DNA from: Leucoraja erinacea | Lineage: Eukaryota | Length of the DNA stretch: 64,000 nucleotides | NCBI RefSeq assembly: GCF_028641065.1 | Contig: NC_073387.1 | Span: 29,884,001 to 29,948,000 of the forward strand | Direction of reading: 5' to 3' | Shown here: positions 8,430 through 63,062 of the stretch, one piece after another | Layout of the letters: every line of letters starts with the position of its first letter | Numbering within the stretch: position 1 is the stretch's first letter | The notes under the pieces: model-generated | The model's input: the letters and a program-made list of their open reading frames with translations, nothing else | Told to the model about the DNA's origin: nothing | The model's database searches: none | Position numbers and translations under genes: made by a program

Positions 8430-9170
8430 CCAAATGTGAAACTATGCGTGTCACCAGAAAGAGGAATCCAGGCGAAACATCTTACAATATACTTGGTACC
8501 ACCCTTGAAGAATCCAAACAAACCAAATGCAGAATGATCTGCGTTGGAATGGTCAGACTCATCATGCAACGGTGAAAGCAACAGGTGTCCTAAACTTTCT
8601 GAGGTGCAACTTTCATCATTGTTCAACTTCTGTCAAGGAGAAGCTATACTTCACCCTCGTTAGACCTCATTTGGACTACGCAGTTGCAGCATGGGACCCA
8701 TACACAAATAAAAACATTTCTTCCATCGAACGTGTCCAAAGACAGGCAGCTCGATTTGTTACTAACACCTATGAGAGAGAAGCGAGTGTCACCAAACTTC
8801 TGAATTCTCTGGGGTGGAACCCTCTCCAAGACAGACGTGAAGCTCACCGTTTGACCTGTTTTTACAAAATGGTCAGCTCGACATAGACTACAAGACCTAC
8901 ACCAAACCCAAACCAATTAGGAGCAGAAGAGGGCATTCGATCCAATTTGTGATCCCAGCTACAAAGACAGATGTGTACAGCAATTCGTTCTTCCCCCGCA
9001 CAATTAAAGCATGGAATAATCTCCACCCAACTATAGTTACCCAACCAGATGCAACTAAATTTAAAGTAGCTCTTTCTTCCCAATAACCCTTTCTGGCTTA
9101 AGCCCTCCCTTCACCACCTCCAGTTTAAATTCCATTTGGAATATTTTGGAGGACCAAGAAACCAAGAAGA
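8430..9170 (+). mobile_element. 3' part of a CR1-group (L2/Crack/Daphne-like) LINE distinct from the local CR1
   Basis: NDLRWNGQ...LNFLRCNF...KEKLYFTLVRPHLDYAVAAWDPY...IERVQRQAARFV, then NSFFPRTIKAWNNL; tail ccaagaaaccaagaa. Confidence 0.8.
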
Positions 9171-25965: not shown

Positions 25966-26972
25966 ATAGAAGATGGAGGGTCTGTTGTTCTTTAATTCAC
26001 CAATGACAACCGGCAATAATCCTTCCTCTCACCCCGGTACTCCTAACAATTCTCTCCCATGCAGCACATCCTACACCAAACATCACATAGCAGCCAGCAG
26101 CAGCCAACGGCACACCAATCTCCCGTAATAGGAACAGCTGTGCCCGACTTCGCTCCCGCACCGGCCAAATCAACACCACAGCCGGGCGGTAAAGCGAAGC
26201 AAAAAACTGACAGAGTCATTGACTCCGATGAGTCCGACTTTGAACAGCCGCGAGCGGCCAGTGCCCGTGAGCATTGGGGCCGGTTGGAGTGGCTTCAGGA
26301 GCAGCCGCTAGCGGCCACTGCCCGAGAGCATTGGAGCCGGTTGGAGCGGCTTGAGGAACAGGAGCAGCCGCGAGTGGCCAATGCCCAAGAGCATTGGAGC
26401 CAGTTGGAGCGGCTGTTGGAGCAAATACTCCAAAGTGGCAGGCTCCGGGAGATGGAGACTAGTCACAGTGGGCAGCTAGTAAGTCCTACAGCAGTACCTC
26501 TTGTAGGGCTGCACAGTGTTTCTCCCTCATCAGAGGGGAGTACGGGGGGTCAATTCTGGGCTGACTCTGAAGAGGGGTGTGCAGAACATACCCCTAGTGC
26601 GCATGGGGTGCAAGAAAACCTATTGGATATGGTGTCCCAGTTCATTCAACCCGACCAAACTGGCCAAAACTTATCCAAACAGGTAAAATAACTTAACAAA
26701 GAGGCTAAAACCCTGGGGCTCATTAAAGCAACATCTAAAAACTACTCCGGCCAGAAACAGCACCCCTACGCACCCACCAGTCGGACAAGACAAACTGGTG
26801 AAAGCTCGAAGTCCAGGTACACTCAACATCGGTCTTTTTTAGGCCATGGCCCAGACCGGCCTTCCTGGAAAATGCGCAAACCCTCAACACCGACCCAACC
26901 ACAGACCCAGACACCGGCGCCTCAATGTCCACGGAGGATACCGAAAAAGTAATAAACCTACCACTGGTAACC

Positions 26973-28653
26973 ATGGAGGTAGGTGGGTCTGGTTCCTTAC
27001 GAATTGAAGGGAGCATGGAGGTTGGTGGGAGATTACACTTCTATCTGGATGCATGGAATAAGTTAACTACCGACACTTATATTTTAAGCAGTATCCAGGG
27101 TTATACCATAGAATTTATACAAAAACATAACCCTCCAGTTCAGCATGTACTGAACCGAATGTTCGTGCTCACAGGCAAAGAAAAATCAAAAGCACACGGT
27201 GAACTACAGTGGCTTTATAAAAAAGGAGTAATTGAGAAAACCGAACACGAATCACAGGAATTCGTGTCCAATATCTTTATCAAAAACAAGAAAGATGGTG
27301 GGTGCCGCATCATCATAGATTTGACTAATTTGAATACTTTCGTACAATATATTCATTTCAAGATGGAAACCTTTGTTACTACTAAGCAATTGATTTCCTA
27401 AGGTTACTACATGGCAAGCATCGATTTAAAAGATGCTTACTATACAGTACCCATCAGAGGTGACCACAGATGTTATTTAAAATTCAACTGGATGGGTCAG
27501 TACTGCCAGTACAGGGCACTACCTAATGATCTAACATCAGCCCCAGGCTGTTCACTAAAATTTTGAAACCAGCCCTAGCGTTTCTGCGGAAACAAAAACA
27601 CATGTTAATGGCATATCTAGATGACATACTTATTGTGGGAAAAACTTTGGAATTGGCTAAACAAACGGTAACAGCCACAAAACAATTATTTGGGAAAAAA
27701 CTGGGGTTTATCATCCATCCAGTTAAATCTAAATTAAAGTCTTCAACCACAATGGGGTTCACCATTAACTCAGTTCACATGTCAGTGACTTTGCCGAAAG
27801 AAAAGGTTACAGCCTTAATAGAGGCTTGCAGAAAAATCATTGACATCAGTAAAACATCCATCAGACTGGTAGCAAGAATAATTGGCAAAATAGTGGCTGC
27901 GTTTCCAGCCACACAATTCGGACCATTACATTATCGAAATTTACAGAGGGCTAAAATACGAGCACTCAAAATTAATGGTGGTCATTTTGACAGACCAATG
28001 AAGCCACCAACAGAGGCCATAATGGAACTAAAATGGTGGAAAGATAACATTAGGCATTGTTCCAATCCAATCATTATCAGCATACCCTGGGGCAGCGGCA
28101 ACAGATGCATTTTCGCTGCATTGGGGGAAATTGTTTATTTATGTATTCCCTCCTTTCTGCCTCATCAGTCGGGTATTAAGGAAAATACAGCAAGACTCTG
28201 CGTCTGGTATTTTGATCGTACCCGATTGGCCTACTCAACCATGGTTCCCGGTGATACTCGACTGTCAATCACCACCCCCCCCCCCCCCCCCCCCCCCCCC
28301 CCGGACACTTTTTTTTTTTTTTTAAATTCAATCGTTCGTGCTATGCTATGTCGCTCTTCAAGGGAGATGCTAAATGCATTTCGTTGTCTCTGTACTGTAC
28401 ACTGACAATGACAATTAAAATTGAATCTGAATCTGAATCTGAATCTGAATTAAGGAAAATACAGCAAGACTCGGCAGCTGGTATTTTGATAGTACCCGAT
28501 TGGCCTACTCAACCATGGTTCCCGGTGATACTCGACATGGTATTAGAACCATGCATCACCATCCGTCATAGACCTAATTTACTGGTTCATCCCATAACAA
28601 GGGAAAGTCACCCATGTCATAATTATATAAACCTATTAATTTGTAGAGTTTGA
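26973..28653 (+). pseudogene. Disrupted DIRS pol (RT, partial MT); RNase H deleted
   Basis: KKDGGCRIIIDL, HFKMETF, YLDD and VFPPFCLISRVL match copy 1. In-frame stops are present. About 0.5 kb is missing at ~28085, and an insertion occupies 28263-28448. Confidence 0.9.
28263..28448 (+). mobile_element. Short LINE/SINE 3' end with (GAATCT)n tail, inserted in DIRS copy 2
   Basis: tttcgttgt...aatgacaattaaa followed by (gaatct)4; flanked by an 88-bp direct repeat. Confidence 0.8.
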
Positions 28654-29620
28654 AAGCACCTCTACTAAACCTGGGACTGACGGACCGAACAGTGGATATT
28701 ATTTCAGCGGCCCACAGACAGTCCACCAAAAAACAGTACTTGGTGTCATCAAGAAATGGGAAATGTACTGTCACAACAATAACGTCACCCACAGATCTAT
28801 GAACATCCCGTCTGTTTTGGAATTCCTGGCAAGCCTCCATTACGATGAGGGGCTCAGTTATAGTGCCATCAACTGCGCCAGAAGTGCTCTATCAACATAC
28901 CTGTGGCAAGGAACAGAGCAGCATTCTGTTGGGACACACCCCCTGGTAACTAAACTCATGAGGGGCATTTTTAATGTTAATCCCCCAAGAACCAGGTACT
29001 CCCAAATATGGGATGTGAGCATTGTACTGGCCATGTTAAGAAACTGGTCTCCAGCTACAGCTCTGTCCCTACAGATACTGACTATGAAAACAGTCATGCT
29101 GATGGCCTTGGTCACGGCACAAAGGGTCCAGTCGCTACAGAAACTAAGGCTGGACAACATGACTACTTAATTTGGAAATTTAACTTTTCACATCAATGAA
29201 TTAGTCAAACAGAACAGACAGGGGTCAGCAGGCCTAAAAATAGAATTCAGGGCCTACCCGACAGATGATCGTCTCTGTATTGTAACACACTTGCTATTAT
29301 ATATGGAGTATACTAAGATCATCAGAGGCAAAGAAATGGCACTTTTAATCAGCTACAAACAGCCACACAAAAAAGTGACAGTCCAGACCATCTCGAGATG
29401 GCTAAAACAGGTCCTAATAAAGGCTGGAGTAGACACTAACATTTTTAAAATCTCACTCCACCAGAGCTGCAGCTACATCGGCAGCTATGAAGTTGGATGT
29501 TCCTATGGATCAAATCCTCAAGACAGCAGGATGGTCAACGGAGAAAACTTTCCAACGATTTTATAACAAACCAATAATTGAACCTGGAACATTTTCAGAA
29601 ACAATTTTAAGTTCTGTAAT
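28647..29620 (+). pseudogene. Frameshifted DIRS tyrosine recombinase
   Basis: LGLTDRTVDIISAAHRQSTKKQY, SYSAINCARSALS, ALVTAQRVQSL, QTISRWLKQVL, (S)HSTRAAATS. Confidence 0.9.
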
Positions 29621-30115
29621 ATAATTTTACCCCATAAATAGAGGCTATAATTTGGTGTTAATAAATTTATCGTTGGGTTTTCAATATCGTATTGATGTCT
29701 AATGATGTTAACACTATTCTCCCCATAATCAAGGCAGATGTGATGCATGGACTCGTTTCCACGGCATGGAATCACAGAGCTCTAAAATCTTCACGTAGTC
29801 ACTCACGTGACTCCGAAGTAAAATAGTAAAATTAAACGAGAACTTACCAGTTTGAAGTTTGATCGTTATTTTATGAGGAGTAACGTTGAGGGAATACGTG
29901 CCCTCCGCTCCCACCCTTGATCATATACTCAACTGGTATCGTCTTCTTTAATCTTACTATGTTTAGTCATTATAGTTATCTGTGATTTCACACCGCTGCT
30001 TTGAAGAATGACACGCATGCGTCCTGGCGGGGTTCTTCACGTATTCCCTCAACGTTACTCCTCATAAAATAACGATCAAAATTCAAACTGGTAAGTTCTC
30101 ATTTAATCTTACTAT

Positions 30116-30480: not shown

Positions 30481-33400
30481 TTCAATGTTCCCATGTGCAG
30501 TCTCAGTGCAGCTCTGCTCTCACAGAGGAAAGAAACAATCTTTCCCTATCCTCATCTTCAGAACATTGGGATTTGCTTCAAACCAAAAGACAGCAATATC
30601 AGTAAGGTAAATACCACACTACTTTAGTCTTAAAAGATTAGCTATAATAGTTATGCATGCTACACATAAATTGGACCTCTAGGTTCGTCGTCTGGGGGCA
30701 AATAGGTAGATTTGAGAACTTGGTCAGGATCAACCATAGTGTAAAAAAGCTTTGAAGCTAACACATGAAGTGTTGACTGTCCCCTTACAAATCTGCTAAA
30801 CTTCCTCGTGGATGACATACTTTAGACTACTTTGGAAGGGGATGATTAAGATTGAAGTTGGTACACAGGTTGAGCAGTGTAGGAATGTCTCGTCAGTCTG
30901 TTCTATATTACATACGATATGTTTCAGATACAGTGAGAATAAATAGAATATTGCAACACTTATGGTGCCAGGCATTAGACTGACATGGAAAGAATCCCAT
31001 CCCATCCAAATGGCAATGTTGAATGTCATCCAGCCTTTCATTGCAGGCTGTCTATTTGACATTGGAGCAAAGATAAGAACTCTGATAGTAGGCTCCAGCA
31101 CTATAGACATTAGCATTCCACCACAGATAGGGAAGAGAGGAGGAATCTGTCTTCTGTCCCAAGCTGTCACAATTGGTTTGAGGCAAGTACCTTTTGGAAA
31201 TCTGAATGCTCCTTTTATTTTCATGAAATGGCTTTGGGAAGGCCAAGTAAGTGAAAGAATACTATCACAATGTAACTTTTTGCTAGTTTCCTTGGTATTA
31301 TGGGATGAGTGCTAAGTGTGCTGTGCCAGTTTTGCACAGTTGAATTAATCTTCTAAAGACTGGCAGTGTCAATGGCCAGAACTCCAAACTTCTTGGTCGT
31401 TCTTTTCCCCATTAACTGAGATGTCTATATGTGGAGGATGGAAGGGTAGGAGGGTTGGGTGGAGTTTCACCCACCGCTGGTTGAAACCTGGAACACTCTG
31501 CCTGAGGCTGGTGCAGAGAGCTACCTGCACAATATTTAAGCAGTGTTAAAATGAGCACTTTAAATAGTATGGCATAGAACGCTGCAGGTTGTAGTCTATA
31601 AAATGGGATTAGTACTGACGGGTCTATTTCCTGTGTTGTATGACTCCATGACTAAAGAAAGATACCACTCGTGTGTTCAATGGGTGCTTTAATTCAAGGA
31701 GAGTTGAGCAAGATTTATGCAAGCAGGATCTCTTTTCAATTTAGTAGCTCCATGGGATCAATTGATGCCTTGCCTGATTTACTCGTCTCTTCAAAATTGA
31801 TTACTCGGTGTCAATGGATGTGATTTTGGAAGAGGGAACAGAGTGAGCATTCACCCAATTTTCCCTCTGCTGGGTCCAAGGATGTTATTAGCTCAAAATG
31901 CATGAAGAACACCAGCAAGTGTGGGTTCAACACATTTAATGCCCCAAGGAGGAGTCCACTGCAGTACTGTTTGTTACCCCCACCTCAACAATCAAAGAGA
32001 TGGGCACAAGAGGTATATATTGGTCAATTTGTGATAAAGATCTGATGTGTGTTTATCTGACCACCATTTAAAACTTGTCCCTATCTGCCACCTGCAAAGA
32101 CTCATGTGCAACGTTTGAGTGAAACTTGTCACATAGCTTTCCAAAAAAATGACTGTCACAATTTACTTAGAAGCAGGCAAATGGTAAGTCTCTGTTACAT
32201 CTCCCCTCTATCTCTGCAAGGAAGGCCCTGACCTTCTATCCTGGCCGTCCCTCTGGTGATGTGCTGAGATTGCTGATAACCCTTGTGGGAAATCAACCGA
32301 GATACTAAAATGTATAACACTGCATCTCTGCACTAAGTCGTACCCTATTGCTGAAGACCACCAAGAATGTAATAAAGCTAATGTAACAAGCACTTTCTCA
32401 TAATTGAAGCTGTTGCTCGCCATGTACGAAAGTGATCCATATATAATCATTAGGGAAATCTTTCTTGCACAGATATTAATTAGGCAAAAATGCTGTTAGA
32501 AATACAACTTACTTTCACGACAATAACTTGTGATGGCAGTTTGCAGGCTCCTTTGTTAAACAGAGAATGGAACCTGAACTACTTTGCAACTCGATGGCTT
32601 ATTTTTGTAAGTAGAAATTAACCTGACGCTAAATTCTCCATGGCGATTACACCCAAACAGAACCTGATGGCCACTTATACAAAATGCTTCTCTTTATTAA
32701 ATCTTGATACATCAGTCAAATAATTGATTGATTCTTATATAAGAACTATGCAATTTATTAGGATTTTAGGTCTATTTTAGATCTACATTATAACTGCTAG
32801 CAGCTATAAATCATTGTGAATGAAAAATAATTAAATACATGGCATAGTTATTTAACTATTATGAGAGGCCTTTGCATTCAATCCAATTATTTCCAATGAC
32901 TTATCCTGTCAATCTTATTAACTGTGAATTATATTGAATTGTTTACAAAAGTACATGTGAGATTTCTGGCGATAAAATGTGTGATTATTCATTTCGAGTA
33001 AGTGTCTAATCTTGAATACAATTTACTGCCACTCATCTTCTGTAAAATAATAGTTGTTGAGGTTGGATGTTAACAGTATAAAGATACTCAGCACAATTCT
33101 CAGATCACTTCAGGTGCTGCCCTTATACTATAATACATCTGCTGAATACAAGCACACTTTTTTTGCAAGTCATGTCTTATGAACTGTTGCCAAGGCAAAG
33201 AGCATGCTCGAAACACCCACTGGAATGATACAGAGTAGGCGAATTATGCCATTGATAAGCATGCAATTCTGAGTTTACTTATTTTAATGCTCAAGGCACC
33301 AACATCAGCCTGTCTTAAACATACATGGCCGAACAGAGCTGAGCAGCAGGAGGAAAAACAGGCAGCAGTATTAAATTGATACTGATACTGATTTTTGTCA

Positions 33401-33954
33401 CTATTTTTTGCTTGCAGCTATGAATCTACACATGTTTAGCTTTATCTATAACATTTTTAAAGTTGCAGACTGCTACAGGGCGTGCTGCGGGGAGCAGGAA
33501 GCACTTTCCGCTCAGTTCAAACCAGTAGCATCCACCTTTGGTACATTCATCGGCAATCTCTGTGAAATATATCGTAACAGGGAAAGTAAGGAGAGACATG
33601 AAAGATTGGGCAAGAGTGGTGGAGGAGCTCTGCCATGGGAAGAGATTACCATGCAGGCAGAGAGAATGATTCAAAGATTTACTTCCAACATCCTTGACGT
33701 GCAACATCCCTACCGTCTACTGGAAATTCCTGGTCCATGCTCAAAGTGGCGATGAGGCATTGAGGATGGCACTGAGAACCTCAGGCCATGCAGTGGGAGC
33801 ACACAGAAGCCCTGCCTGAGCAGCAAAGGTATTGCACCACCTCAGTACCCACCCATCCTCTGGCCCATCTGCAGAGGAGCCTGCAGCTCCTATATTGGTC
33901 ATCTTGGTGAATCTGGTATGGAAGCAAGTCATCAATCCTGAGTGACTGCTGATG

Positions 33955-41592: not shown

Positions 41593-43205
41593 GTTAGTTA
41601 AAACAAATGTAGGTCCCTTGCAGTCAGAGGTGAATTGATCATGGGGAACAAGGACATGGCAGACCAATTGAATAACTACTTTGATTCCGTCTTCACTAAG
41701 CAAGGCATAAATAATCTGCCGGAAATAGCAGGGGACCGCGAGTCAAATGAGATGGAGGAACTGAGTGAAATCCAGGTTAGCCGGGAAGTGGTGTTAGGTA
41801 AATTGAATGGATTAAAGGCCGATAAATCCCCAGGGCCGGATAGGCTGCATCCCAGAGTACTTAAGGAAGTAGCCCCAGAAATAGTGGATGCATTAGTGAT
41901 AATTTTTCAAAACTCTTTAGATTCTGGAGTAGTTCCTGAGCATTGAAGGGTAGCAAATGTAACCCCATTTTTTAAAACGGGAGGGAGAGAAAAAATGGGG
42001 AATTACAGACCAGTTAGTCTAACATCGGTAGTGGGGAAATTGCTAGAGCAAAGATGGGATAGCAGCACATTTCGAAAGTGGTGAAATCATTGGACAAAGT
42101 CAGCATGGATTTACAAAAGGTAAATCATGTCTGACGAATCTTATAGAATTTTTCAAGGATGGAACTAGTAGAGTGGATGGAAAGTGGATGTGTTATATCT
42201 GGAATCATTTCGACAAGGTCCCACATAAAAGTCAAACTTAAAGCACATGGTATTGGGGTTTCAGTATTGATGTGGATAGAGAACTGGCTCCAGTAGGAGT
42301 GTCCTTTTAAGAAAGTGGTGGGGAGGCAGGTTCAGTTGGTATTTCAATATATATTAAAAATAATTGATTGATCTCCAAGGCAGATGACACGAAGCTGGGG
42401 ATAGAGGAGGATGCTAGGAGGCTGGAGGTGACTTGGATGGTGGGTGAGTGGGCAAGTGCAGGCAGGCAGTATAATGGGACTGAGGTTACCCACTTTGGGG
42501 AAAAAAGTAGACTATTATCTAAATTGTCGATTAGGAAAAGGGGAGATGCAACAAGACCTGGGTGGCCATGGTTCCGTGCTGTGCAGCAGGCAGTGAAGAA
42601 ATGAATGGCAAAATGATTTGAGTATGGAGCAGGGAGTCTACTGCAGTTGTAGATTGGTGAGACCAAATCTAAATCATTGCGTACAGTTTGACTCCAAATC
42701 TTATAGAATTTTGCCATAGAGGGAGTACAGGAAGGTTCACCAGTAGATTCCTGGGGATAATATGGAGAAACCAGTGGATGTGCTAGAATTTAGAAGGACT
42801 TTAGAAGGCTTTCGACAAGGCCCCACAAAAGAGATTTACCAAAATTATACACACGGGGTTGGTATTGGAAAGGCTTATACAAACTTAGAAGGAAGATTGA
42901 TTGTTCCCGATGTTGGGGAAGTCCAGGAGAAGGGGTCACAGTTTAAGGATAAAGGGGAAAATCCTTTAGACACGAGATGAGAAAAACATTTTTCACACAG
43001 AAATGAATCTCTGGATCTGCCACAGAGGTAGTTGAGGGTTCATTGGCTATATTTAAAGGGTGTTAGATGTGGCCCTTGTGGCAAAGGGAGCAGGGGGTAT
43101 GGTGAAGGCAGGTACAGGATCATTTTCAGCCATGATCATATTGAATGGCGGTGCAGGCTCGAAGGGCCGGGTACTCCGCTAATGTTTCTCATGTTCTATG
43201 GGACC
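41593..43205 (+). mobile_element. CR1 LINE nested in the Gypsy integrase
   Basis: ORF 41635-41946: LNNYFDSVFT, KADKSPGPDRLHPRVLKE. The 3' half is garbled; tail ttctatg at ~43195. Confidence 0.9.
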
Positions 43206-44048
43206 CCAGCTATTTCTATTATAAAGGTAGTCTTTTAAATCTTTTGACATGAATGAGGTGCCCCTATCAGAATGTACGTAACTTGGAAATCCACAGAATG
43301 AAAACATTGATCTAAACATTTGATAACCATAGCAGCTGACATATTTGGACAAGGAAAGGCAAATGGAAACCTTTTGTCAACCATGGAAGTAATAAACATT
43401 GGGAGGATAAAGGCCCTTTGAAGCCTACGTTCCATAGGTTGAGTAAACATACCAAGAACCTTGGTTTTAATTCCCTTCGTTCACATCTTCTGTAGAGAAA
43501 GAGTTTTTAAGGGCCTGTCCCACAGCCTGTGAGTGCAGTGGGGCGAAGAATTGAACAGAGGCACAAAATGCGAGTTAATGTTCCGGGCACATTATCCTTA
43601 CCTGGGCAAACAATTGAATAATTATATGCTGATAATTCACCTCCATTCATGAATTTTACTGTTTGTAATCTTCGTACGTGTCCGATTATCCAGTATAAAA
43701 GCTACTGAACGCTGATCTGTTATCACCGTATGGCTGTAGCTTCCTTTTCGATGGGGGGTTAGTGCAATTCACTACCGATACGAGACATGAAAGCCACTGG
43801 TCGTCCTCCTTAATTAATGTTGCTGTATTGCTAAATCAGAGGCATCACATTCAACAACAAAGGGGAGATCCTCATCGATGGCGTGTTTCGCAGATTCTAA
43901 TTGTTTCTTTAAAGAAGTGGCACCAATTGCTGTAGCCAAGGGGGGGAAAGATTTTGCTCTAATCAAAGTTTGAATTTTGTCAGAAAAATTTGGTGTCCAT
44001 TTAGCCTAATATGCAAACATACCAAGAACCCTTCGTAGAGAGTTTTAA

Positions 44049-44521
44049 GGGCCTGTCCCACTTGCAGGCGATTGCATGCGTTTGGCACGACCAAACGTGG
44101 TCACTTGAGGCGTACGGGCACCGTATGGCCGCGCGGGGCCGATCCCACGTAGAAGTGCGGAGTTTTGCGGGGTTGGTCCCAAGATCGCGCAGGGTTTCGA
44201 ATATTTGATATTGTCCGAAATCTTCACACGCCAACGGCATGTCGGCACGCAGGCGCATTGCGGTCGTACGCAGCATCTTGACGGAGTACGCAGTGTCTTG
44301 ATGGCGTACGCCTAGTGTGTGGCGTTGAGCGATGACGTCACCACCCGACGCTGTGCATCGTCCAAATTCAGTTGGCCCGCCTCCTGCCCAGCTGATTGGT
44401 AAGTATGACGCAAATGACATCACGAGCGAACTTAGCGCGTACTTAGCGTGAACTTTGCGTGTACTACGCTTCCGTTTGGTCGCGCCAAATGCACGCAATC
44501 TCATGCAAGTGGGACAGGCCC
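44049..44521. mobile_element. MITE (non-autonomous DNA transposon) inserted in Gypsy pol
   Basis: About 50-bp TIRs starting GGGCCTGTCCCACTTGCA; TTAA on both sides (TA TSD equally possible); CpG-rich. Superfamily not determined. Confidence 0.88.
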
Positions 44522-46525
44522 TTAATGTAGCTGGAACAGCTATCTCTAGGAGTGGGCGGAGTCTTTCTGGATCAGGCTTGATTATATAATTTCCAACCCA
44601 ATAACCAAGAATATTAATTGATGACACTGATGTTATTGACTTTGCCTCATTTAATGTTAGATTTTTAGAATGTACAATTTCTAAAAACCGTTGTACATTT
44701 TCGTCATGTTCAGCTTGGTCTTTTCCTGCAATAGTTATATTATCAAGATAAGAGAAAGTATCTTTAAGGTTTTCTTGTTTAATAAGTTTGTCTATCTCTC
44801 TCTGAAAAACAGCCACGCCATTAGTTACACCAAAAGGAACTCTGCAGTAGTGGTATAATTTCCCATTGACTTCAAACGCTGTGTATTTCTTCTCTGATCC
44901 TTTCAAAGGAATTTGGTAGTAAGCACTTTTTAGGTCAAATTAGAGAATATCTTATACTTAGCTAATGTATTGATAATCTCTTCTATACGAGGTAATGGAT
45001 TTGCATCAAGCACCGTGAACTGGTTTATAGTTTGAGAGTAATCAATGCAGAGTTTCTTTCTATGTCTCTCCAAGGGGTCCTTAACCACGACAACTTGTGC
45101 CCTCTAAGGGGAAGAGCTGGGTTCTATGATACCCTCTCGTAAAAGATTAGCTACTTCTGTGTTGATAAAGTTTCTGTCATCGTTACTAAAATGTCTTGAT
45201 TTTGTAGCAATTGGCTTGCACTTAGGGGATAAATTAGTGAATAATGAAGGACGTTCAACAGATGCAGCTGAAAAACACACAATACTGGTGGCTTTGACAA
45301 TACAAGATCAGGCATAGTTCCTTCATACTTTATTTGAAGTGATCTGTGCTGTTTCTGAAAATCCTGACCTAGAATTATATCGCTACACAAATCATTCAGA
45401 ATACCAAGACATACAGATTTATAACTAGTTTTGTTCTGAACAAAGTTTACAATACAAGATTCAATAATTTGAGTATTGTGAGTTGTCAGAGCCATCGAGA
45501 TTTCTCTATTTGAAGGAATTATAGTTAGATTTAATCGGGACACAACTTGTTCACTTATAAAACGTTCTGAACTGCCAGAATCAAGTAGCACATTAAGTGT
45601 ATGGCCATTGATGGATACCGTTGTAGCTGCATGAGACAAGCTCTGAGGTAATGCAGGTGTAATTGCACATAAAGAGGGTATACACATGGCAACAGTCATA
45701 CTTTTAGTAGTTGCTTTGGACTTGCATACTCTAGAATAATGTTCCTTCTTGCCACAACTATTACAAGTTGCCTCTCGAGCAGGACATATCTCTCTATTAT
45801 GAATATTACCCCCGCAAAAGTAACACTTCCTTTTCGAATAAGTATTTGCTGCAGCAAGGGCACATTTATTAGTAAAAATTATTTCAGCTTGCTCCATATT
45901 AGTACTTGGGTGAGATTCTTTTGTAGTAGTTGCAGCAGAATACACATTAGATGAGCCATAAGCATCTGAATTTTTCTGAGCCGAGTCTAGTGAGTAAGCT
46001 TGGTGGTAAGTTGACTGTAAATCCAAGGTTTTGTTTTCTAATAGTCTCTGTCGTATTAAAGGTGATGCCAAACCATTGATAAAAGAGTCTCGAATAAATT
46101 CCTGTCGATATTGATCAGCCGTTACTGCTTTGAAGGCACAGTCTTTACTAAGTCTTTGAAGTTCTTGTAAAAATTCATCAAGTAATTCATCAGGTTTTTG
46201 TTTCCGAGTAGCAAGGAGGTGTAGAGCAAATATTACGTTAGGTGTCTTAACGAAGAGTCTGCTTAGTACATCAATAGCAGTATCATAAGTTGTACATTCC
46301 TCTATGTAATCATATATATCATAAGCGACAGAGCTTATTAATGTCCTGATTAGTCTGGTAAATTGTTGCCACGCTCATCAAAGAAGTTATTTAGTGTACG
46401 GAGCCAGTGCTTCCATTCCTTTGCAGCAGTAGGTAAGTTGGGATCCAGATCCAAGCGTTGTGGTTTCAATAGTTTCTCCATCTTGATGTCACACTGCTTA
46501 GATTCTGAGATTGAGTTGCTTAAAT

Positions 46526-50634: not shown

Positions 50635-52670
50635 TAGGACTGAAGGCAGATAAACCCCCAGGGCCTGCTGGTCTGCATTCCAGAGTACTCAAGGACAGTC
50701 ACGGAAATCGCTATTAAAACATGGAGGGGACACCATTTCCTTGCGTGCGTCTGCGCGCATGCGCATGCGCACACACATGCAAGGCTTCGGCCGTGGGCCC
50801 TGTGGACCGTAACATCGGGAGCTGACCTGGTTGGCGACCGACTCCAAACTCCAGCAACAGCAGCTTCACTTGCCCCGAATCGTGGGGCTTGAATCGGCCC
50901 ATTCATGGGGTCTTTCATCGGCCGGCAGGGGCTTCAACATCGGGAGCCTCGATCGCCTCGATGCAGCAGTTTGATTTTAAGCCACGCCGGGAGCTTAAAG
51001 GCCCCGCGAATGGGTCAATTCAGCCCTTAGAAAGCATCTGATAAATATTACAAAATATGGGGGAGATTGTCCTCCACCTCTCAAAGCATGGGGGGGAGGG
51101 GGGGGCGTGTCCCCCTGTCCCCCCCCAGGATTTCTGCACATGGTAAGGAGGTGGCCTTAGAAATCGTGAATGCAATGGAGATAATTTTCCAGTATTCTCT
51201 CGACTGGATCAGTTCCTATGGACTGGAGGGGAGCCACTGTAACCTCACTTTTTAAGAAAAGAGGGAGAGAGGAATGTGGAATTATAGACCAGTTAGCCTT
51301 ACATCAGTAGCGCGGAAGATGCTTGAGTCGATTGTTAATGATGTTATAGCAGCGCATTTGGAAAGCAGTGACAGGATCGGTCAAAGTCAGCATGGATTTA
51401 TGAAGGGAAAATCATGCTTGACTAATCTTCTGGACGTTTTTGAGGATGTAACAAGTAAAATGGATAAGGGAGAGCCAGTTAGTGTGGTGTATCTTGACTT
51501 TCAAAAAGCCTTTGACAAGGTCCCACACAAGAGTTTAGTGTGCAAAACTAGAGCACATGTAATTGGGGGTAGGGTATCGACATGGATAAAGAACTGGTTG
51601 GCAGACAGGAAGCAAAGAGTAGGAATTAATGGGTCCTTTTCAGAATGGCAGGCAGTGACTGGTGGGATGCTGCAAGGTTCGGTGCTGGGACCCCAGTTAT
51701 TTACAATATATATTAACGATTTAGACCAGGGAATTAAATATGACATCTCCAAGTTTGCGGATGACACAAAACTGGGTGGTAGTGTAAGCTGCGATGAGGA
51801 TGCTATGAGGATGCAGGGTGACTTGGATAGGTTGGGTGAGTGGGCACATGCATGGCAGATGCGGTATAATGTGGATAAATGTGAGGTTATCCACTTTGGT
51901 GGCGAGAACAGGATGGCAGATTATTATCTGAATGGTGTCAGATTAGGAAAAGGGGAGGTGCAACGAGACCTGGGTGTGCTTGTACATCAGTCACTGAAAG
52001 TAAGCATACAGGTACAGCAGGCAGTGAAGAAAGCTAATTGCATGTTGGCCTTCATTGCGAGAGGATTTTAGTTTAGGAGCAAGGAGATTCTACTGCAGTT
52101 GTACAGGGCCTGGTGAGACTGCACTTGGAGTACTGTGTGCAATTTTGGTCTCCTAATTTGAGGAAGGACATTATTGCTATTGAGGGAGCGCATCGTAGGT
52201 TCACCAGGTTAAGTCCCGGGATGGCAGGACTGACATATGATGAAAGAATGGGTCAACTGGAATTTAGAAGGATGAAAGGATATCTTATAGAATATAAACA
52301 TATAAAATTCTTAAAGGATTGGACAGGCTAGATGCAGGAAAAATGTTCACGATGTTAGGGGAGTCCAGAACCGGACGTCACAGTTTGAGAATAAGGGGTA
52401 GATCATTTAGGACTGAGATGAGGAAAATCTTCTTCACCCAGAGAGTTGTGAATCTATGGAATTCTCTGCCACAGAAGGCAGTGAGGGCCAATCCACTGGA
52501 TGTTTTCAAGAAGGCGTTAGATTTTTCTCTTAGGGCTAAAGAAATTAAGGGATATAGGGAAAAAGCAGGAACGGGATACTGATTTTAGATGATCAGCCAT
52601 GATCATATTGAATGTCAGTGCTGGCTCTAATGGCTGAATGGTCTACTCCTGCACCTATTTTTCTATGTTT
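50635..52670 (+). mobile_element. CR1 LINE, 5'-truncated (RT to 3' end)
   Basis: ORF 51274-52071: NYRPVSLTS, QHGFMKGKSCLTNL, YLDFQKAFDKVPH, QGSVLGP, KFADDTKL. Downstream RLHLEYCVQFWSP and FFTQRVVNLWNSLP; 3' tail ttctatgt. Confidence 0.95.
50696..51142. mobile_element. Probable hAT-like MITE inserted in CR1
   Basis: Interrupts CR1 at ...gtactcaagga|ggtggcc with aagga repeated. Imperfect termini cagtcacggaaatc / gatttctgcacatg. Confidence 0.55.
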
Positions 52671-55600: not shown

Positions 55601-58270
55601 ATACTAAGGCCCCAACACCCATGGCATATTAGCCCAAGACTCTTTAAAAAAAAAATCATTGCTTTAAAATCTTCCATGATCTATCGGCTTTGTAATATCC
55701 TACATCCCTGTTCTTTTCAGCTCTTTTTATCTCTTCTGTTCTCCCTCTCAGTTATCCATGATGTTAGCATTGTGAGGTGCGTACCTAGGGTAGATTGTGG
55801 GAAATATTCCCAAAATCAGAGGTGTCTAATACTTTGGGAAGTAAGTTGAGGATAAGGAGTAAGAGGTTTGCAAGGGCAACTAAGGAGGAATTATTTTACC
55901 CAAAGGACGGTTGGTTTGGGATGTGCAGTCTGAGTGGTGGAGGAGGCAGGTACTCCCACATTCTCCATCAGTATTGCAACAATCGCAGCCCTTTGCGTAG
56001 CCAGAAGTCTGGACCTAGCATCATTTGTGTGAAGGATTATTTTGTTCATACTGGTACAAGGTTAATCCCATTTTCCTGCTCTCTGCACATAGCCTTGCAA
56101 ATTATGTTTCTTGAACTGATACTTTTTTTTCCCGATGGGGTGAGGGTTTCCCCATCCTCCACCTTTTCAGGTAGAGAAATTGAGGCAATGCAGATGACCC
56201 TGAACGTCCAGTCACCTGACACTTTAATTATCCATCCCACTCGGTCCTCTCTGCCTCTGGCCTCCTATACTGTTCCAGTGAAGTGTAATATCAGCTCAAA
56301 GAGTAGGCCCCCTTTCAAATTAGGCAAGTCACAGCCCTGAGATTTAACACACAGTTCAAATATTTTAGATCATCATTTTGTGTCAGAAATAACCAATTCT
56401 AATGTATCAGTCTTCAACCATCCGATGGCCAATTCCCAGTCTGAAGTTGGGTCTCAACCTAAAATGCCTTCTGTCTATTTCCCTCCACATATAGAGTCAT
56501 AGAGTCTTACAGCGTGGAAACAGCTCCTTTGGCCCAACTTGCCCAAACTGGCCAACATGTCCCATCTACACTAGTCCCACCTGCCTGCATTTGGCCCATA
56601 TCCCTCTAAACCTGTCCTATCTAAATGTTTCTTAAAAGTTGCAATAGTCCCTGCCTCAACTACCTCCTCTGGCAGCTCGTTCCATATACCTACCACCCTT
56701 TGCTTGAAAATATTCTGTTGCCTGTATGTTGCTTGACCTTCAGCACTTCTGTTTGTGCTCAAGGTTCCAGCATCTGCAGTCTCCTGAGTGACTAAATTGT
56801 TTATTATATATTACATATGGGAATTGTGTTTACAGGCCTGTTGTGCAGCTGCTGGGATGAATTTAATTGTCCCATTGTCAATATATATGACAACCAAACA
56901 CACTGGACTTGGAGGTCATCCACTTGTAAAATAATTCCAACCTTTTCTGTCTACGGATGCTACCAGATCTGTGGAATTCTTGTAGCATTCTCCCTTATTT
57001 CAGATTTCTGAAAACCCTTGAGTTCTACAGCGTACAATTCCAGCATTGTTATTTTCTTTCACTATAATTGCTCTCATGTAACTCTCTCTTTCCACCACTC
57101 TCCAGACAAATCAGTTGTGATTTACAAACATTCACTCCCGTTGATTAGACGGCATCAAAAGCAATTGTGTTAGCTGTTGTTTGCCATCCTTTCACAGCCA
57201 TTTGTTTTGGTGTCTGTAGTTCATCCCCCTCTGCAAATTAGCTATGCTCACTTTCTCTCTTTTCCAGTTCTGATGAAGGAAGATTAACTCTGTCTCTCTC
57301 CACAGATGCTGCCTGACCTGCAGACAATTTACAGCATTGTCACTTTTCAGTGCATCACTCCTTTGTTCACACATGGACAATCTTGATTAGAAGCCTGCTT
57401 ATCTTTAACCTTTGCATTGGGTCGGGCAGGCACATTTTTAATGTTGAAGTGAAATACCTGCTTCCTGTGAATGTTATAGAATATGGATCCCCTTGTCATT
57501 AGGTCTCTACAAATCGCATAACTGAATGTGCCAGTGGTTGACAAGCACTAATTAGAAAGCAAATTATAACACTACTGTAAGACAGATATGTATACCTTTA
57601 AAAGCGGAATTATTATTGGCCTAGTTACCCTACTACATCTGCCATCAGTGATTTTGTGGATTAAAACTATGACTCTGATATCAACTGTGAGCCACCGTTG
57701 AGTGAATGTGCAATGATGTGAGTCTGAAACCCACTGGGTTTATTGGGAAGTTTTCCATTTTGCTTGCTGTGCTGTAAGACGTGGCATGGTAGCCATGACA
57801 ACAGGAAGCTACTCGCTCAGATCAAGTGAGTCTTAGAATCATTCTTCCATTCTTCATTTCTGGAGCATGTGAAAAATGTTTTTAACTTAATTATCTTGGG
57901 CATCTTCTGGATCTAATCTACCTCGCAAGTAAGGTGGTCCAATATGAAATGACTCCAGGTTTTTGTTAAGTCCAAAGAGGTAAATGTGTGGTTAGATTGA
58001 CATGTGATCAAGTCAATGTGCACATCTCAAGGACTGCAGCATGTCAAGTTAGCTCATTGCACCTTCTCAAGGGCAACTAGGGATGGGTAATTTTACTTCG
58101 GAGTCACGTGAGTGACTACATGAAGAACCCACCCAGCGCGCAGGCGCGGCATTACGTCAGCAGTGCAACAGCGGCAGCAGCTGGAGCCAGGCTCTCCAGC
58201 GGCAGCATAAAGTCAAGACCTCAGGTAAGTGCCTTTTTTGTGTTACAGAGTCGCTCAACGGTGGAGAATT

Positions 58271-59494
58271 ATGGCCACCCGAAAGCGACCAGCCAGAAGG
58301 ACTGCCTGCCCTACTCCACCCGAGGAGGGGTCCATAGCTGGGCGGCAGCCACTCGTAGCGGAGGAGCCATTTCAACGCTCCCGCTCACCCGACGCCGAGC
58401 CGCCCCCTGTGCTGCCGATATCGACGCCCCGCACAGGGAGGAAGGCTACCCATAAAACGGACCGGCCGGTGTCCTCCGATTCATCGGAGGAACGGGAACG
58501 CTCTCCACCGCCGAAACGGGGAGACGCCCGCATCAGCTGCATGAGGCAGCTGTTGGAACAAATGATTGATGAGGAGATGCAGGCTAGGCATCTCCCAGGA
58601 GGACGGGCTTTGGCCTCCTCCTTACCATCACCACACCCTTCTGTACCCTCTATGTTCGAGGGCAGTAAGGGAGGCCAGGACTGGGCTGGCCTATCCCAAG
58701 GGCAGGCGGACGACAACATCAGTATGCCGGGCGTGCTGGAAGAAGAGCTACTGGGTGTAGTGGGTCGGTACGCAGCGCCCCCAACGACCGGGATGGTACT
58801 ACCACCTAGACTGGCGGCCAGCATCAATAGGCTTTCCAACAAGCCGCTGCTGGAAAAGGTCGTCCAGCAGGCCCTTGATACCTATACAGCGCCAGAGAAT
58901 TGCGAGGCGCTGCGGGTGAAAACAGTCAACGGGCAAATATGGAACCAGCTGGGGCAGCAGATCAGGACTCACGAGGTAAAAATGCAGCGGGTCCTGAAGC
59001 TCCACTCTGCAGCCATCACCGCCTTTGCTCGGTCCGTCGGGAACGAAGAGCTTTCCATACCCCAGCAGGATGCACTGGCATTGATGTGCAACACCACGTA
59101 CGAGCTCAACAGCCTACGGCGGGATAACATCAGGCCTGCCCTCAATCCGAAATACGCAGGCCTCTGCAAAGCTCCAGCGCCGGAACGGGAGGCGCTGCTA
59201 TTTGGTGCAGACCTGGCCAAAAAACTAAAAGAGTTGGAAGAGGCGGCCAAACCTGTAGGCCTCATGAGGGCAGCGCCAGGACCAAGCAGGGTGAAGACAC
59301 CCAGTTGGCAGCACGCCTCAGCATCCACCAGCAGGTACCGAGCTGGTGAAAGCCTGGTGACCGCCTCCCACTACCCCCAGAGCTCTTTTTTAGAGCGGGG
59401 CCCAGGGCGGAGCCGTGGGAAGATGCGCCGCCCCACCGCAGCACCAACACGGACAACCTTGGGCCAAACCTATCGGAAACGCCCCCACAAATAA
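58271..59494 (+). CDS. DIRS ORF1, gag-like protein (407 aa from ATG 58271)
   Basis: Open frame from ATG GCC ACC to TAA, ending 2 nt before the pol ATG. Motifs PENCEAL..VN.QIW, ELNSLRRDNIRPALNPKYAGLC and LLFGADL are typical of deuterostome DIRS ORF1. Homologous to ORF 26059-26691 (GRKATHKTDR vs GGKAKQKTDR). Confidence 0.85.
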   Translation: MATRKRPARRTACPTPPEEGSIAGRQPLVAEEPFQRSRSPDAEPPPVLPISTPRTGRKATHKTDRPVSSDSSEERERSPPPKRGDARISCMRQLLEQMIDEEMQARHLPGGRALASSLPSPHPSVPSMFEGSKGGQDWAGLSQGQADDNISMPGVLEEELLGVVGRYAAPPTTGMVLPPRLAASINRLSNKPLLEKVVQQALDTYTAPENCEALRVKTVNGQIWNQLGQQIRTHEVKMQRVLKLHSAAITAFARSVGNEELSIPQQDALALMCNTTYELNSLRRDNIRPALNPKYAGLCKAPAPEREALLFGADLAKKLKELEEAAKPVGLMRAAPGPSRVKTPSWQHASASTSRYRAGESLVTASHYPQSSFLERGPGRSRGKMRRPTAAPTRTTLGQTYRKRPHK

Positions 59495-59496
59495 AC

Positions 59497-61431
59497 ATGG
59501 AGGTAGGTGGGTCTGGTTCCTGCCAACATGCACAGACAAAGGGTGTTGTATTAACAGGAGGACGTTTGAGGTTCTTCAAGCATGTTTGGTGCTCCCTTAC
59601 TAACAATAAGTTTATACTCAACAGTATCAGTGGATACAAAATTGAATTCAAACCAGGCATAGAACCGCCAGTTCAGCACATGCCCCAAAGGGTATTCCTT
59701 CCCTCAGCAGTTGAGAAGGTAGAAGGACAAGCTGAACTAGATCGGCTCGTGGCTAAAGGCATCATAGAAATGACCACACACGAGCCGCAAGAATTTGTAT
59801 CAAATATTTTTCTCAAATCCAAAAAAGATGGTGGATGTCGCATTATTATTGATCTGACGTCACTTAATCAGTCTGTTGAGTATCAACATTTCAAAATGGA
59901 GACATTTGTCACTGCCAGACAACTGATCTCCAAGGGATACTACATGGCAAGCATAGATATCAAGGATGCTTACTATTTAGTACCCATTCATAGGGATTAT
60001 TACAAATATCTGAAATTTATCTGGATGGGCCAGCTATGGCAGTACAGAGCCTTGCCCAATGGTTTAACGACAGCTCCCAGATTATTTACAAAAATTCTCA
60101 AAGTGGCCATGAAAAAATTGAGAGAACAAAAACATTTAGTCGTGGCCTATCTGGACGATGTTCTCATATTAGGGAGAACAAGGGAACTAGCTGTCGCAGG
60201 AGTTTTAGCCACTAAACAACTCCTTGAAACTTTGGGATTCATCCTACACCCAGATAAATCAATATTGGAGCCTACTACTAACATGGATTACCTAGGCTTC
60301 ACTATTGACACTATCCATATGACTGTCACTCTGCCCAGAGACAAAAAAGTTTCACTCATCGAAGCTTGTAACCATTTAATTGCTATACCGCAACCAAGGA
60401 TACGGCACGTAGCCAGAGTTATTGGCTCTATAGTAGCAGCATTCCCGGCTGCCCAACATGGGCCCTTGCATTATCAAAATTTGCAAAGAGCAAGGACTCA
60501 TGCATTACGTCTTAATAGGGGGCATTATGACCGCAAAACGGAGTTACCTACTGAAGCCAGATCAGAACTTCAGTGGTGGGTCGATAATATTTGGCACAGT
60601 CACAGTCCTATCGCCGTCACCAATCCTAACATAACCATTACAACGGATGCCAGTGCTTTAGGCTGGGGAGCTACTAACTCCATAGACAGCACAGGTGGCA
60701 GATGGACTAACTCAGAGGCATCGCTACTACAATCACTGGGCATTAACTTCTTGGAAATGCTCGCCGCCTTTTATGGGCTAAAAGCATATACATCTGATAT
60801 GCGGCATGTGCATGTTAGGATTATGATTGACAACACAACGGCGGTATCTTATATCCAGCACATGGGTGGCATAAAATCAGTATCATGCGACAAATTAACT
60901 ACTATAATCTGGCAATGGTGTGTCGAGAGACATATTTGGCTATCAGCTGCCTATTTACCAGGCAAGCTAAATTTAGTGGCGGACACCAGGTCACGAAAAT
61001 TCAATGACAACATCGAATGGATGTTGGACCCAAAACTATTTGCTAGAATTGTCAAGCAATATGGTACGCCAGATATAGATTTGTTTGCGTCTAGACTAAA
61101 TCACCAACTACCCATGTATGTGGCTTGGGAACCAGACCCAGAGGCAGCAGCGGTAGATGCCTTCACGCTGGATTGGGGAAATTTCTTTTTCTATGCTTTC
61201 CCTCCCTTCTGCCTCATCAGTCGGGTACTCCAGAAAAGTCGGGCAGACTCAGCCTCCGGCATTCTGATCGTGCCCGACTGGCCTACCCAACCATGGTTCC
61301 CAATGTTCCACGACATGGTGGTAGAGACACCTATGGTCCTTCACAACCACCCCCACTTATTGACTCACCCGGTAACTGGCATTAGTCATCCATGCCACCA
61401 AAAATTGAACCTCCTGGTTTCCAGATTCTGA
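59497..61431 (+). CDS. DIRS ORF2: reverse transcriptase + RNase H + phage-like N6-adenine methyltransferase domain (644 aa)
   Basis: RT: KKDGGCRIIIDL, IDIKDAYY, LPNGLTTAPRLFTK, YLDD. RNase H: TDASALGWG, INFLEMLA, IDNTTAVSYI, YLPGKLNLVADTRSR. MT: PDIDLFAS..N, VDAF..DW, YAFPPF, ILIVPDWPTQPWFP. Confidence 0.95.
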   Translation: MEVGGSGSCQHAQTKGVVLTGGRLRFFKHVWCSLTNNKFILNSISGYKIEFKPGIEPPVQHMPQRVFLPSAVEKVEGQAELDRLVAKGIIEMTTHEPQEFVSNIFLKSKKDGGCRIIIDLTSLNQSVEYQHFKMETFVTARQLISKGYYMASIDIKDAYYLVPIHRDYYKYLKFIWMGQLWQYRALPNGLTTAPRLFTKILKVAMKKLREQKHLVVAYLDDVLILGRTRELAVAGVLATKQLLETLGFILHPDKSILEPTTNMDYLGFTIDTIHMTVTLPRDKKVSLIEACNHLIAIPQPRIRHVARVIGSIVAAFPAAQHGPLHYQNLQRARTHALRLNRGHYDRKTELPTEARSELQWWVDNIWHSHSPIAVTNPNITITTDASALGWGATNSIDSTGGRWTNSEASLLQSLGINFLEMLAAFYGLKAYTSDMRHVHVRIMIDNTTAVSYIQHMGGIKSVSCDKLTTIIWQWCVERHIWLSAAYLPGKLNLVADTRSRKFNDNIEWMLDPKLFARIVKQYGTPDIDLFASRLNHQLPMYVAWEPDPEAAAVDAFTLDWGNFFFYAFPPFCLISRVLQKSRADSASGILIVPDWPTQPWFPMFHDMVVETPMVLHNHPHLLTHPVTGISHPCHQKLNLLVSRF

Positions 61432-62402
61432 ACAGACCTTACCGGGGATTGGGGTTATCAGAGAGAACAATCACCACCATGTCGGCATCCCTGCGAGTTT
61501 CCACCAAGAAACAGTACCTGACCTACATCAGGAAATGGGAACAGTACTGTCTGGAAGCAGGGACATCTTACAAGACGGCTTCGATCTCGGATGTGCTGGA
61601 GTTCCTGGCCCACCTGCACCATGACCTAAAGATGAGCTACAGTGCCATCAATGCAGCTCGGAGCGCCCTGTCCGCATACCTTATGCCCATAGGACAGCAT
61701 AGTGTTGGATCCCACCCTCTGGTTATCAAACTCCTTAAAGGGATTTATAACACCAAACCCCCTACACCTAGATACACCCATATGTGGGATGTTAGTGTAG
61801 TATTGTCACACCTTCGAGGTTGGCCTCCGGTGGGATCCCTGAGCCTGGAACAGTCCACTTATAAGACCCTCATGCTCATGGCGCTTGTCTCAGCTCAGAG
61901 GGTTCAGTCGCTGCATCAGTTAAATCTGGACCACATGGTGACCACCCCAGATACCATTACTTTTACCATGCCGGGGTTGGTCAAACAGAGCAGACCAGGT
62001 ACATCCAACTCCCCGTTGATCTTCCGGGCATACCCTCCAGAACCTAGGCTGTGTGTGGTGACCCACCTTTATAATTACATAGACACAACCCGAACTCTTA
62101 GAGGGGGAGAAAAAGCCTTATGGGTCAGCCATAAAAAGCCTTTTGGACGGGTTACCAGCCAGACAATATCCAGATGGTTGAAACAGGTCCTTAATATGGC
62201 AGGGATTAACACAGATGTTTTTAAATCCCATTCAACCAGGGCAGCGTCCACGTCAGCGGCGGATCGGATGCAGGTTCCCCTAGACCACATCCTCAGTGCA
62301 GCGGGATGGTCAAGGGAATCGACATTCCAAAAATTCTACCGCAAACCGCTGATGCAGAAGGACGTCTTTGCGGAGAGAATTTTAGAAACCGCAAATTTAT
62401 AA
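61392..62402 (+). CDS. DIRS ORF3: tyrosine recombinase (true start possibly supplied by splicing at 61425)
   Basis: N-terminal SAM-like region (STKKQY..KW..YC, SYSAINAARSALS). Catalytic residues R (SAQR), HSTR, W (AAGW) and Y (TFQKFY). Confidence 0.93.
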   Translation: MPPKIEPPGFQILNRPYRGLGLSERTITTMSASLRVSTKKQYLTYIRKWEQYCLEAGTSYKTASISDVLEFLAHLHHDLKMSYSAINAARSALSAYLMPIGQHSVGSHPLVIKLLKGIYNTKPPTPRYTHMWDVSVVLSHLRGWPPVGSLSLEQSTYKTLMLMALVSAQRVQSLHQLNLDHMVTTPDTITFTMPGLVKQSRPGTSNSPLIFRAYPPEPRLCVVTHLYNYIDTTRTLRGGEKALWVSHKKPFGRVTSQTISRWLKQVLNMAGINTDVFKSHSTRAASTSAADRMQVPLDHILSAAGWSRESTFQKFYRKPLMQKDVFAERILETANL

Positions 62403-62561
62403 TTTAAAGCCCAGGGGAGCTATTTTTTGTTGTTCTTAATAAACATTTGTTTTTTAAAACTAACAAACTCGTTGGTCTTTAGCTACCACTTCCTCCCTCG
62501 ATGATCTTTCGGCAGTGAGTGATAAAACTGTTACACGGTTTGAAATCACAGACCTTTGAAG

Positions 62562-62674
62562 TCTTCACGTAGTCACTCACGTGACTCCGAAGTAAAATAG
62601 TGAGATTAAACGAGTACTTACCAGTACGAAGTTTGATCTGTATTTTATGAGGAGTTACGATGAGGGATTACGTG
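62562..62674 (+). repeat. DIRS internal complementary region (ICR), copy 1
   Basis: 62562-62597 is the reverse complement of 58091-58126 (1 mismatch). 62612-62674 is the reverse complement of 62819-62881 (1 mismatch). Confidence 0.93.
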
Positions 62675-63062
62675 CCCTCCGCTCCCACCCTCATTGTATA
62701 GATCAAACTCGGACTGATGTCTCATTAATCTTTACTATCTTTACTTCAATTTGTGTCTATCTGTGATTCCACACCGCTGCTTGGAAGTATGCCGCGCCTG
62801 CGCGCTGGGTGGGTTCTTCACGTAATCCCTCATCGTAACTCCTCATAAAATACAGATCAAGCTTCGTACTGGTAAGTACTCATCCCTGTAATCTCACAAT
62901 AAAATTAAATCTGCAAAACTCGGCCTGCAGTTAACATAATGTTCATTATCTTACATCTTTTACATGGAATATCAAAATCACAATCACAATACAAAACTTG
63001 TTAGCCAAGTATGTTAATTGCAACTGACTCACGCAAAGTGCAATTCCCTACATGGAATATAT

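Follow-up and report, generated by a model that had tools for sequence, protein, structure and literature searches.

DIRS1-like retrotransposons, in the passages of two reports that describe them (PMC3266345, PMC9210276), carry gag, pol and tyrosine recombinase (YR) ORFs with a pol/YR overlap, ITRs, an internal complementary region (ICR) and an ATT start, the same set of features as in the element analyzed here. These passages are silent on the translation of the YR, and word searches of the two papers gave neither "splic" nor "intron". How the DIRS recombinase is translated is unsettled, and a frameshift for Ngaro is the only proposal met in the portions of the literature covered here.

The element described below resides in a 64,000-nucleotide stretch of the Leucoraja erinacea genome (contig NC_073387.1, positions 29,884,001 to 29,948,000, forward strand), hereafter the window, and all coordinates are window positions. 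An in-frame splice donor precedes pol and an acceptor lies at the start of the YR; both are conserved and in phase 0, and the transframe stretch leading into the donor is open. A first-pass annotation had proposed that the YR is made from RNA from which pol has been spliced out, and Pol from RNA that retains it. The sites, their phase and their conservation speak for this proposal, and the lack of a splice junction in 8 sequencing runs speaks against it.

The element and its copies

The intact DIRS1-like element spans positions 58090-62900, and a decayed relative lies upstream.

58090..58152, + strand: left ITR, which starts with ATT and pairs with the ICR and the right ITR
58271..59494, + strand: gag ORF, 407 aa, with no Pfam match; a sea-urchin gag segment matches relatives
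59350..61431, + strand: pol frame, open upstream of the ATG
61386..62402, + strand: YR frame, an open frame that overlaps the end of pol
61425..62402, + strand: tyrosine recombinase exon of 325 codons, of which codon 19 is the first Met, PF00589
62562..62674, + strand: ICR, with complementarity to both ends
62789..62881, + strand: right ITR with an extension, complementary to the left ITR and the ICR
26835..30100, + strand: copy 2, a decayed DIRS element of another family, with a heptamer at 26835, a donor at 26978/26979 and an acceptor at 28646/28647

Pol bears an RT (Pfam RVT_1, E=1.4e-18), and the recombinase ORF matches the tyrosine recombinase family (Pfam PF00589, E=2.3e-7), with weak matches of the YR to Cre (E ~0.002). 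The RNase H and methyltransferase domains of pol give no Pfam match at E<=0.001; RNase H-like and MT-like motifs are visible in the pol translation. The 5' terminus is the ATT at 58090, and the element has ITRs together with an ICR complementary to both ends, as DIRS1-like retrotransposons do. At least 150 near-identical YR copies (95-100% identity) are present in this genome, indicating that the family is young, and the closest named proteins are from skate (71% and 50%). Copies with the 24-nt motif discussed below number more than 3400. Copy 2, which starts at about 26.0 kb, contains frameshifts, lacks pol residues ~378-547 and has a broken YR.

In both window copies, AATAAA overlaps the gag stop (59490-59495 and 26951-26956), an arrangement that most other families lack; so placed, just before the donor, it could permit a gag-only RNA. 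Elsewhere in the window, minus-strand ORFs at 44001-46374 resemble, by eye, LTR retrotransposon gag/protease and RT. Fragments that look like LINE RTs of a CR1/L2-like kind lie at 13669-14460, 41602-41946, 51256-52071, 5541-6469 and 8509-8886, and the second half of a 126-codon open frame at 33375-33755 may be a host exon.

Phase-0 splice signals on either side of pol

The sites that delimit the predicted intron, and a further AG within it, are as follows.

59497..59508, + strand: ATG in a strong Kozak context and donor D2, GAG/GTAGGT, cut 59502/59503, with a second GT 4 nt downstream
59503..61424, + strand: predicted optional intron, 1922 nt (1668 nt in copy 2), which holds nearly all of pol including the RT
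61207..61220, + strand: pyrimidine-rich AG, 68 codons before A3, the acceptor position in sister lineages; here it leads to stops
61410..61424, + strand: acceptor A3, cut 61424/61425

Re-reading of the sequence bears out the first-pass annotation in all its coordinates, phases and stops. ATG GAG/GTAGGT occupies 59497-59508; the acceptor AG lies at 61423-61424 in copy 1 (CAG) and at 28645-28646 in copy 2 (TAG), where the TAG is an in-frame stop for the YR; both joins are in phase 0. The 24 nt said to be identical in copy 2 (26973-26996) are indeed so, with diverged flanks.

The 24-mer has 3462 exact matches in the genome and its reversed control none, which argues against chance, and a version degenerate at synonymous positions has 4296 matches, with GAG GTA GGT in all of the first 100 listed. 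The first 60 matches listed and 17 variants were retrieved by motif, and 78 copies, including both window copies, form 16 clusters that are 66-85% identical. Among loci selected by motif, conservation of the donor is circular, and it was therefore retested with 60 loci picked for their resemblance to distant RTs, 54 of which were analyzed, most of them from the window's own family. GAGGTAGGTGG is kept in 50 of these 54 loci; among the other six, three keep the ATG and the donor, two decayed copies (L218, L224) have a phase-0 donor that no Met precedes, and one is without the region.

Conservation extends to distant families, which come from a metagenome scan that gave 80 loci with 29-59% YR identity. 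The 53 loci that could be anchored, less five that were dropped (L140, L142, L150, L155, L163), left 48, representing 42 families. Among the 24 distant families with a 5' part, the best donor, by an in-house heuristic that supplies all splice-site scores, is in phase 0 in 18, with 107/121/84 in control windows; three of the six phase exceptions are tandem donors with a phase-0 GAG/GT 4 nt upstream. The first-pass annotation had called for a test of whether the ATG, donor and acceptor are invariant across DIRS families: the donor and the phase-0 acceptor recur, and the ATG is not general, a Met in the pol frame preceding the donor in only 4 of the 24 families. Tandem donors 4 nt apart (59503-59512 in the window; also L094, L099 and L124) are kept in the clade with the acceptor at position 0, the second donor being out of frame. 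Nine loci of a non-autonomous family (L035, L038, L044, L050, L051, L054, L056, L066, L088) have lost much of pol and have a broken YR; they keep the donor and the acceptor ~1.15-1.2 kb apart, and eight of the nine keep the 3' arm of the duplex considered below.

At the acceptor, YAG is found in 54 of 56 mapped copies (62 sequences; 37 CAG, 17 TAG, 2 other) and in all 49 mapped acceptors of the RT-selected loci. The pyrimidine tract of A3 is weaker than that of the AG at -68. In the distant families, a phase-0 YAG with at least 7 pyrimidines of 12 lies inside the YR open frame in 39 of 42, where 11.3 would be expected; the other two phases give 10 and 13. Raising the threshold to at least 9 pyrimidines leaves 24 in phase 0 versus 4 and 2. 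For 12 of the 42 families, the stop at which the YR frame opens is itself a pyrimidine-rich TAG, compared with 97 of 1458 other stops (p=2e-5).

The acceptor occupies different, clade-specific codons (0, ~-14, -27 and ~-68), suggesting that the design outlived any single AG. In a 36-row tree, built from 33 of the 42 distant families and three from this genome, the group with the acceptor at position 0, which includes the window element, forms one branch (95/88) beside the -68 lineages. This placement accounts for the leftover AG at 61207-61220, and the single branch means that the evidence amounts to about four independent acceptor positions rather than 42. The position-0 YAG doubles as pol coding sequence, for Cys/Ser-Arg, and among Arg codons AGR is the more frequent (101 vs 47). 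The donor and the pyrimidine-YAG acceptor, conserved in phase, are those of a spliceosomal GT-AG intron; no branch point is obvious by eye. A search of viral contigs gave 76 pattern matches, with no relative among them, and a lead on capture of U1/U2 was dropped after an Rfam search of 20 loci gave 0 matches.

Candidate routes to the recombinase

YR codons that precede any shared Met are under coding constraint. Codons 4-18, which lie beyond the pol stop and before Met19, have a pN/pS of 0.48 across 10 family representatives, compared with 0.33 for codons 19-40 and 0.78 and 1.41 in the other frames, and Met19 is replaced by Ile in three coding families among these representatives. Because codons 4-18 are constrained in the YR frame and Met19 is not conserved, the YR needs an upstream start. 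The rival outcome named beforehand, a YR ATG shared by relatives, did not materialize: in 18 of the 42 distant families, the first 25 codons and what precedes them are free of ATG. The predicted structure of the YR has a mean pLDDT of 90, with helices at residues 4-7 and 13-20; the region of codons 4-18 is predicted to be helical at pLDDT 83-91.

The pol frame already runs open from 59350, ahead of the ATG, a point that the first-pass annotation overlooked, and it contains the signal and the stretch that could bring ribosomes to the donor.

59386..59393, + strand: slippery heptamer T TTT TTA followed by G, in phase for a -1 shift from gag to pol; the same letters could be read as an acceptor
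59386..59502, + strand: transframe stretch, read in the pol frame, with no stop between heptamer and donor

The heptamer, of the U UUU UUA type, as in HIV-1, is kept in 46 of 78 copies; 35 of these have it in phase, and none of the 35 has a stop ahead of the donor; the chance of a stop-free transframe is 0.25-0.60 per family (11 related representatives). An in-phase -1 slippery heptamer is present in 20 of the 24 distant families, in which heptamers number 29 in the -1 phase versus 5 and 1 in the others. An in-phase X XXY YYZ heptamer and an open -1 frame, as expected of a -1 frameshift site, are both present. A stable hairpin downstream of the heptamer was found in none of 14 cases (z 0.2 to 3.0), a search that covered simple hairpins only. 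Some clades use TTTAAAC or AAAAAAC, which are incapable of being acceptors, so the slippery site is rejected as a general acceptor.

Taking together the two readings that involve it, we consider it likely that pol is spliced out to make the YR. The version that we favor, and regard as more likely than not, is that the recombinase is made in this way with ribosomes reaching the donor by a -1 slip from gag. Ribosomes would slip near 59386-59392, enter the transframe and proceed to the donor; unspliced RNA would encode Gag-transframe-Pol and spliced RNA Gag-transframe-YR, which, with Gag itself, would make three products from one promoter. Gag-transframe-YR is likelier than Met-Glu-YR as the general product because a Met occurs in 4, and the heptamer in 20, of the 24 families. 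The splicing, the frameshifting and the protein products are what we infer, not what we observe.

NCBI models from Strongylocentrotus (P0127, P0131) and Diadema (P0157, P0158) join a transframe peptide to the YR at the same boundary, with no RT. The transframe peptide of the sea-urchin models, which include XP_030847864.1 and XP_030851203.1, bears FFR and ends in PKE, and the unspliced model reads MLQ there. These joins are putative, being those of gene models; RefSeq isoform variants usually rest on transcripts. One metagenome DIRS contig (L142:900-1070) runs from gag and transframe in frame into the YR without pol. It resembled a spliced form but was set aside: a candidate acceptor persists a few codons past the apparent join, no unspliced relative is among the loci, and the contig could be either a splice product or a deletion.

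The splice could also operate as described with the YR and Pol starting mainly at the ATG at 59497 in this lineage, a route that would require either that ribosomes reinitiate once past the gag stop, which lies 2 nt upstream, or that a leader donor be spliced to the AG within the slippery site, which reads as pyrimidines followed by AG.

58222..58230, + strand: leader donor D1, CAG/GTAAGT, cut 58224/58225, with a pyrimidine-rich CAG 24 nt on (58248/58249)

This reading is unlikely, although several observations fit it. Of the first 100 matches listed in this genome, 93 retain the ATG, A stands at -3 in 54 of 54 RT-selected copies, a D1-type donor is found in 78 of 84 leaders, many of them from one family, and the frameshift hairpin was not found. 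The closest invertebrate relatives lack both the D1-type donor and the ATG; this absence rules out a general leader donor. Because the ATG and the leader donor are kept here and neither is present in those relatives, a derived route to Met-Glu-YR is conceivable. Against a main start at the ATG, a Met is missing ahead of the donor in L218, L224 and 20 of the 24 distant families; all 35 in-phase copies have a transframe free of stops, which an ATG start does not need (at a chance of 0.25-0.60 per family); and the joint from the leader to 59393 was not seen in the runs. The first-pass claim that the YR starts at the pol ATG fits the conservation of the ATG in this lineage and fails in most of the distant families. 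Under the favored reading, the ATG may be a lineage-specific extra, possibly a second, derived start. This lineage would probably have added a strong leader donor as well as an ATG placed two codons ahead of D2, additions that could give Met-Glu-YR and a Met-started Pol.

Past the near-perfect leader donor, at 22-62 nt (mostly 22-24), comes a pyrimidine-rich AG immediately ahead of the gag ATG, a distance that is probably too short to splice. In L035, L039 and L076, ACTTACCT, able to pair with the donor, is placed between the leader donor and this AG. The element's 3' end (62869-62877) holds a perfect donor-like CWGGTAAGT, and its mirror in the ICR (62616-62624) is a U1-like ACTTACCWG, both conserved to distant invertebrate families (L094, L099, L124, L127, L131). 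In a circle or a tandem array, the 3'-end donor-like site would precede the leader AG.

The junction 59502^61425, which the first-pass annotation had singled out for an RNA check, did not appear: 8 of 24 listed runs (three raw RNA runs, 1-5% of which was read, and five contig sets only guessed to be RNA, the tissues unknown) contain neither D2-A3 nor other joints involving the predicted sites. Three contigs (X1, X9, X12) cross the donor and the acceptor unspliced. Raw depth at the donor is only ~11-18, with reads on both strands; much of it may therefore be host-gene read-through, and the junction search has poor power. An intron-less genomic copy was not found either, with 0 matches to a pattern that would fit 30 of 56 loci and no ~376-codon frame, as expected of such a copy, among the top 150 YR matches. 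DIRS-1 copies can retrotranspose after losing a marker intron, according to a passage of PMC7192593, so the lack of intron-less copies would imply either that splicing is rare or that replication signals lie inside the intron.

It is very improbable that there is no splicing and that the YR comes from a -1 frameshift at the end of pol, as proposed for Ngaro (Poulter and Butler 2015, quoted in a passage of PMC13003380), or from an internal Met. The -1 frame of the YR relative to pol, the presence of Met19 in several families and the lack of junction reads would suit such a scheme, but in 17 of 56 copies the YR frame is shut by a TAG lying two codons ahead of the pol stop, and only 4 of 42 families have an in-phase heptamer where pol and the YR overlap. 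Nor does it agree with the constraint on codons 4-18 and the inconstancy of Met19, and it leaves the phase-0 donors unexplained.

The intron also contains a potential long-range duplex.

59508..59520, + strand: 5' arm of the 13-bp duplex, intron +6 to +18
61128..61140, + strand: 3' arm, codons W-E-P-D-P

Intron positions +6 to +18 are the exact complement of 61128-61140, and a G-to-A change at +9 is accompanied by the matching C-to-T in 7 of 9 copies, compared with 1 of 53 copies without the +9 change. The seven compensated copies are one subfamily, and the pairing is broken in other families. The identity of the 24 nt, which the first-pass annotation had attributed to the splice site, is accounted for by the GT donor in part only, positions +6 to +18 being better explained by this pairing. 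A general donor-proximal duplex was discarded as a candidate: none was found in the 20 distant families tested or in L241, all of which keep the donor. The duplex is a plausible, weakly supported, lineage-specific element, and its 12-13 bp may, speculatively, tune the splicing ratio. That the conserved letters instead serve pol coding or replication RNA structure, the splice-like look being a by-product, is most unlikely: the Arg codon at the position-0 AG, the pairing with its one compensatory change and the lack of processed copies are compatible with it, but the -14, -27 and -68 acceptors lie in different pol contexts, all in phase 0, and the donor persists where the duplex is absent.

Comparison with known expression strategies

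We tentatively suggest, as a possibility slightly short of even, an animal-wide DIRS1-like plan that would combine a -1 slip with pol as a retained intron, the acceptor having been relocated several times, and fish additions (leader donor, ATG, duplex) setting the Pol:YR ratio. If the favored reading holds, the integration enzyme would be carried as a Gag fusion, loading it into particles; YR ORFs annotated from the first ATG would have the wrong N-terminus; and the clade-dependent length of the pol/YR overlap would be explained.

Retroviruses employ a gag-pol -1 frameshift, a transframe peptide and a spliced env mRNA, with pol inside an optional intron. The element described here departs from this scheme in that the downstream gene is a recombinase, which would be fused to Gag-transframe, and in the lack of a stimulatory hairpin.

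In Ngaro (Poulter and Butler 2015, as quoted in a passage of PMC13003380), the YR and the end of pol overlap, with the YR in the -1 frame, as here. In the present element, by contrast, the slip signal lies between gag and pol rather than at the pol/YR junction (where 4 of 42 overlaps carry one), and the YR is apparently obtained by splicing. Word searches of DIRS literature, covering PMC7192593, PMC13003380, PMC9210276, PMC9341512, PMC12006353, PMC3266345, PMC3783388, PMC2685390 and PMC6681497, together with literature searches by title and opening of the abstract, found no description of spliced YR expression in DIRS.

In plant Ty1/Copia elements, as presented in a portion of PMC5580714, alternative splicing of one transcript balances the proteins, as we propose here. 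Splicing there gives a short GAG-only RNA, whereas here pol would be excised and the 5' frame connected with the recombinase. The DIRS1-like element itself is ordinary, and its proposed expression plan is what is new.
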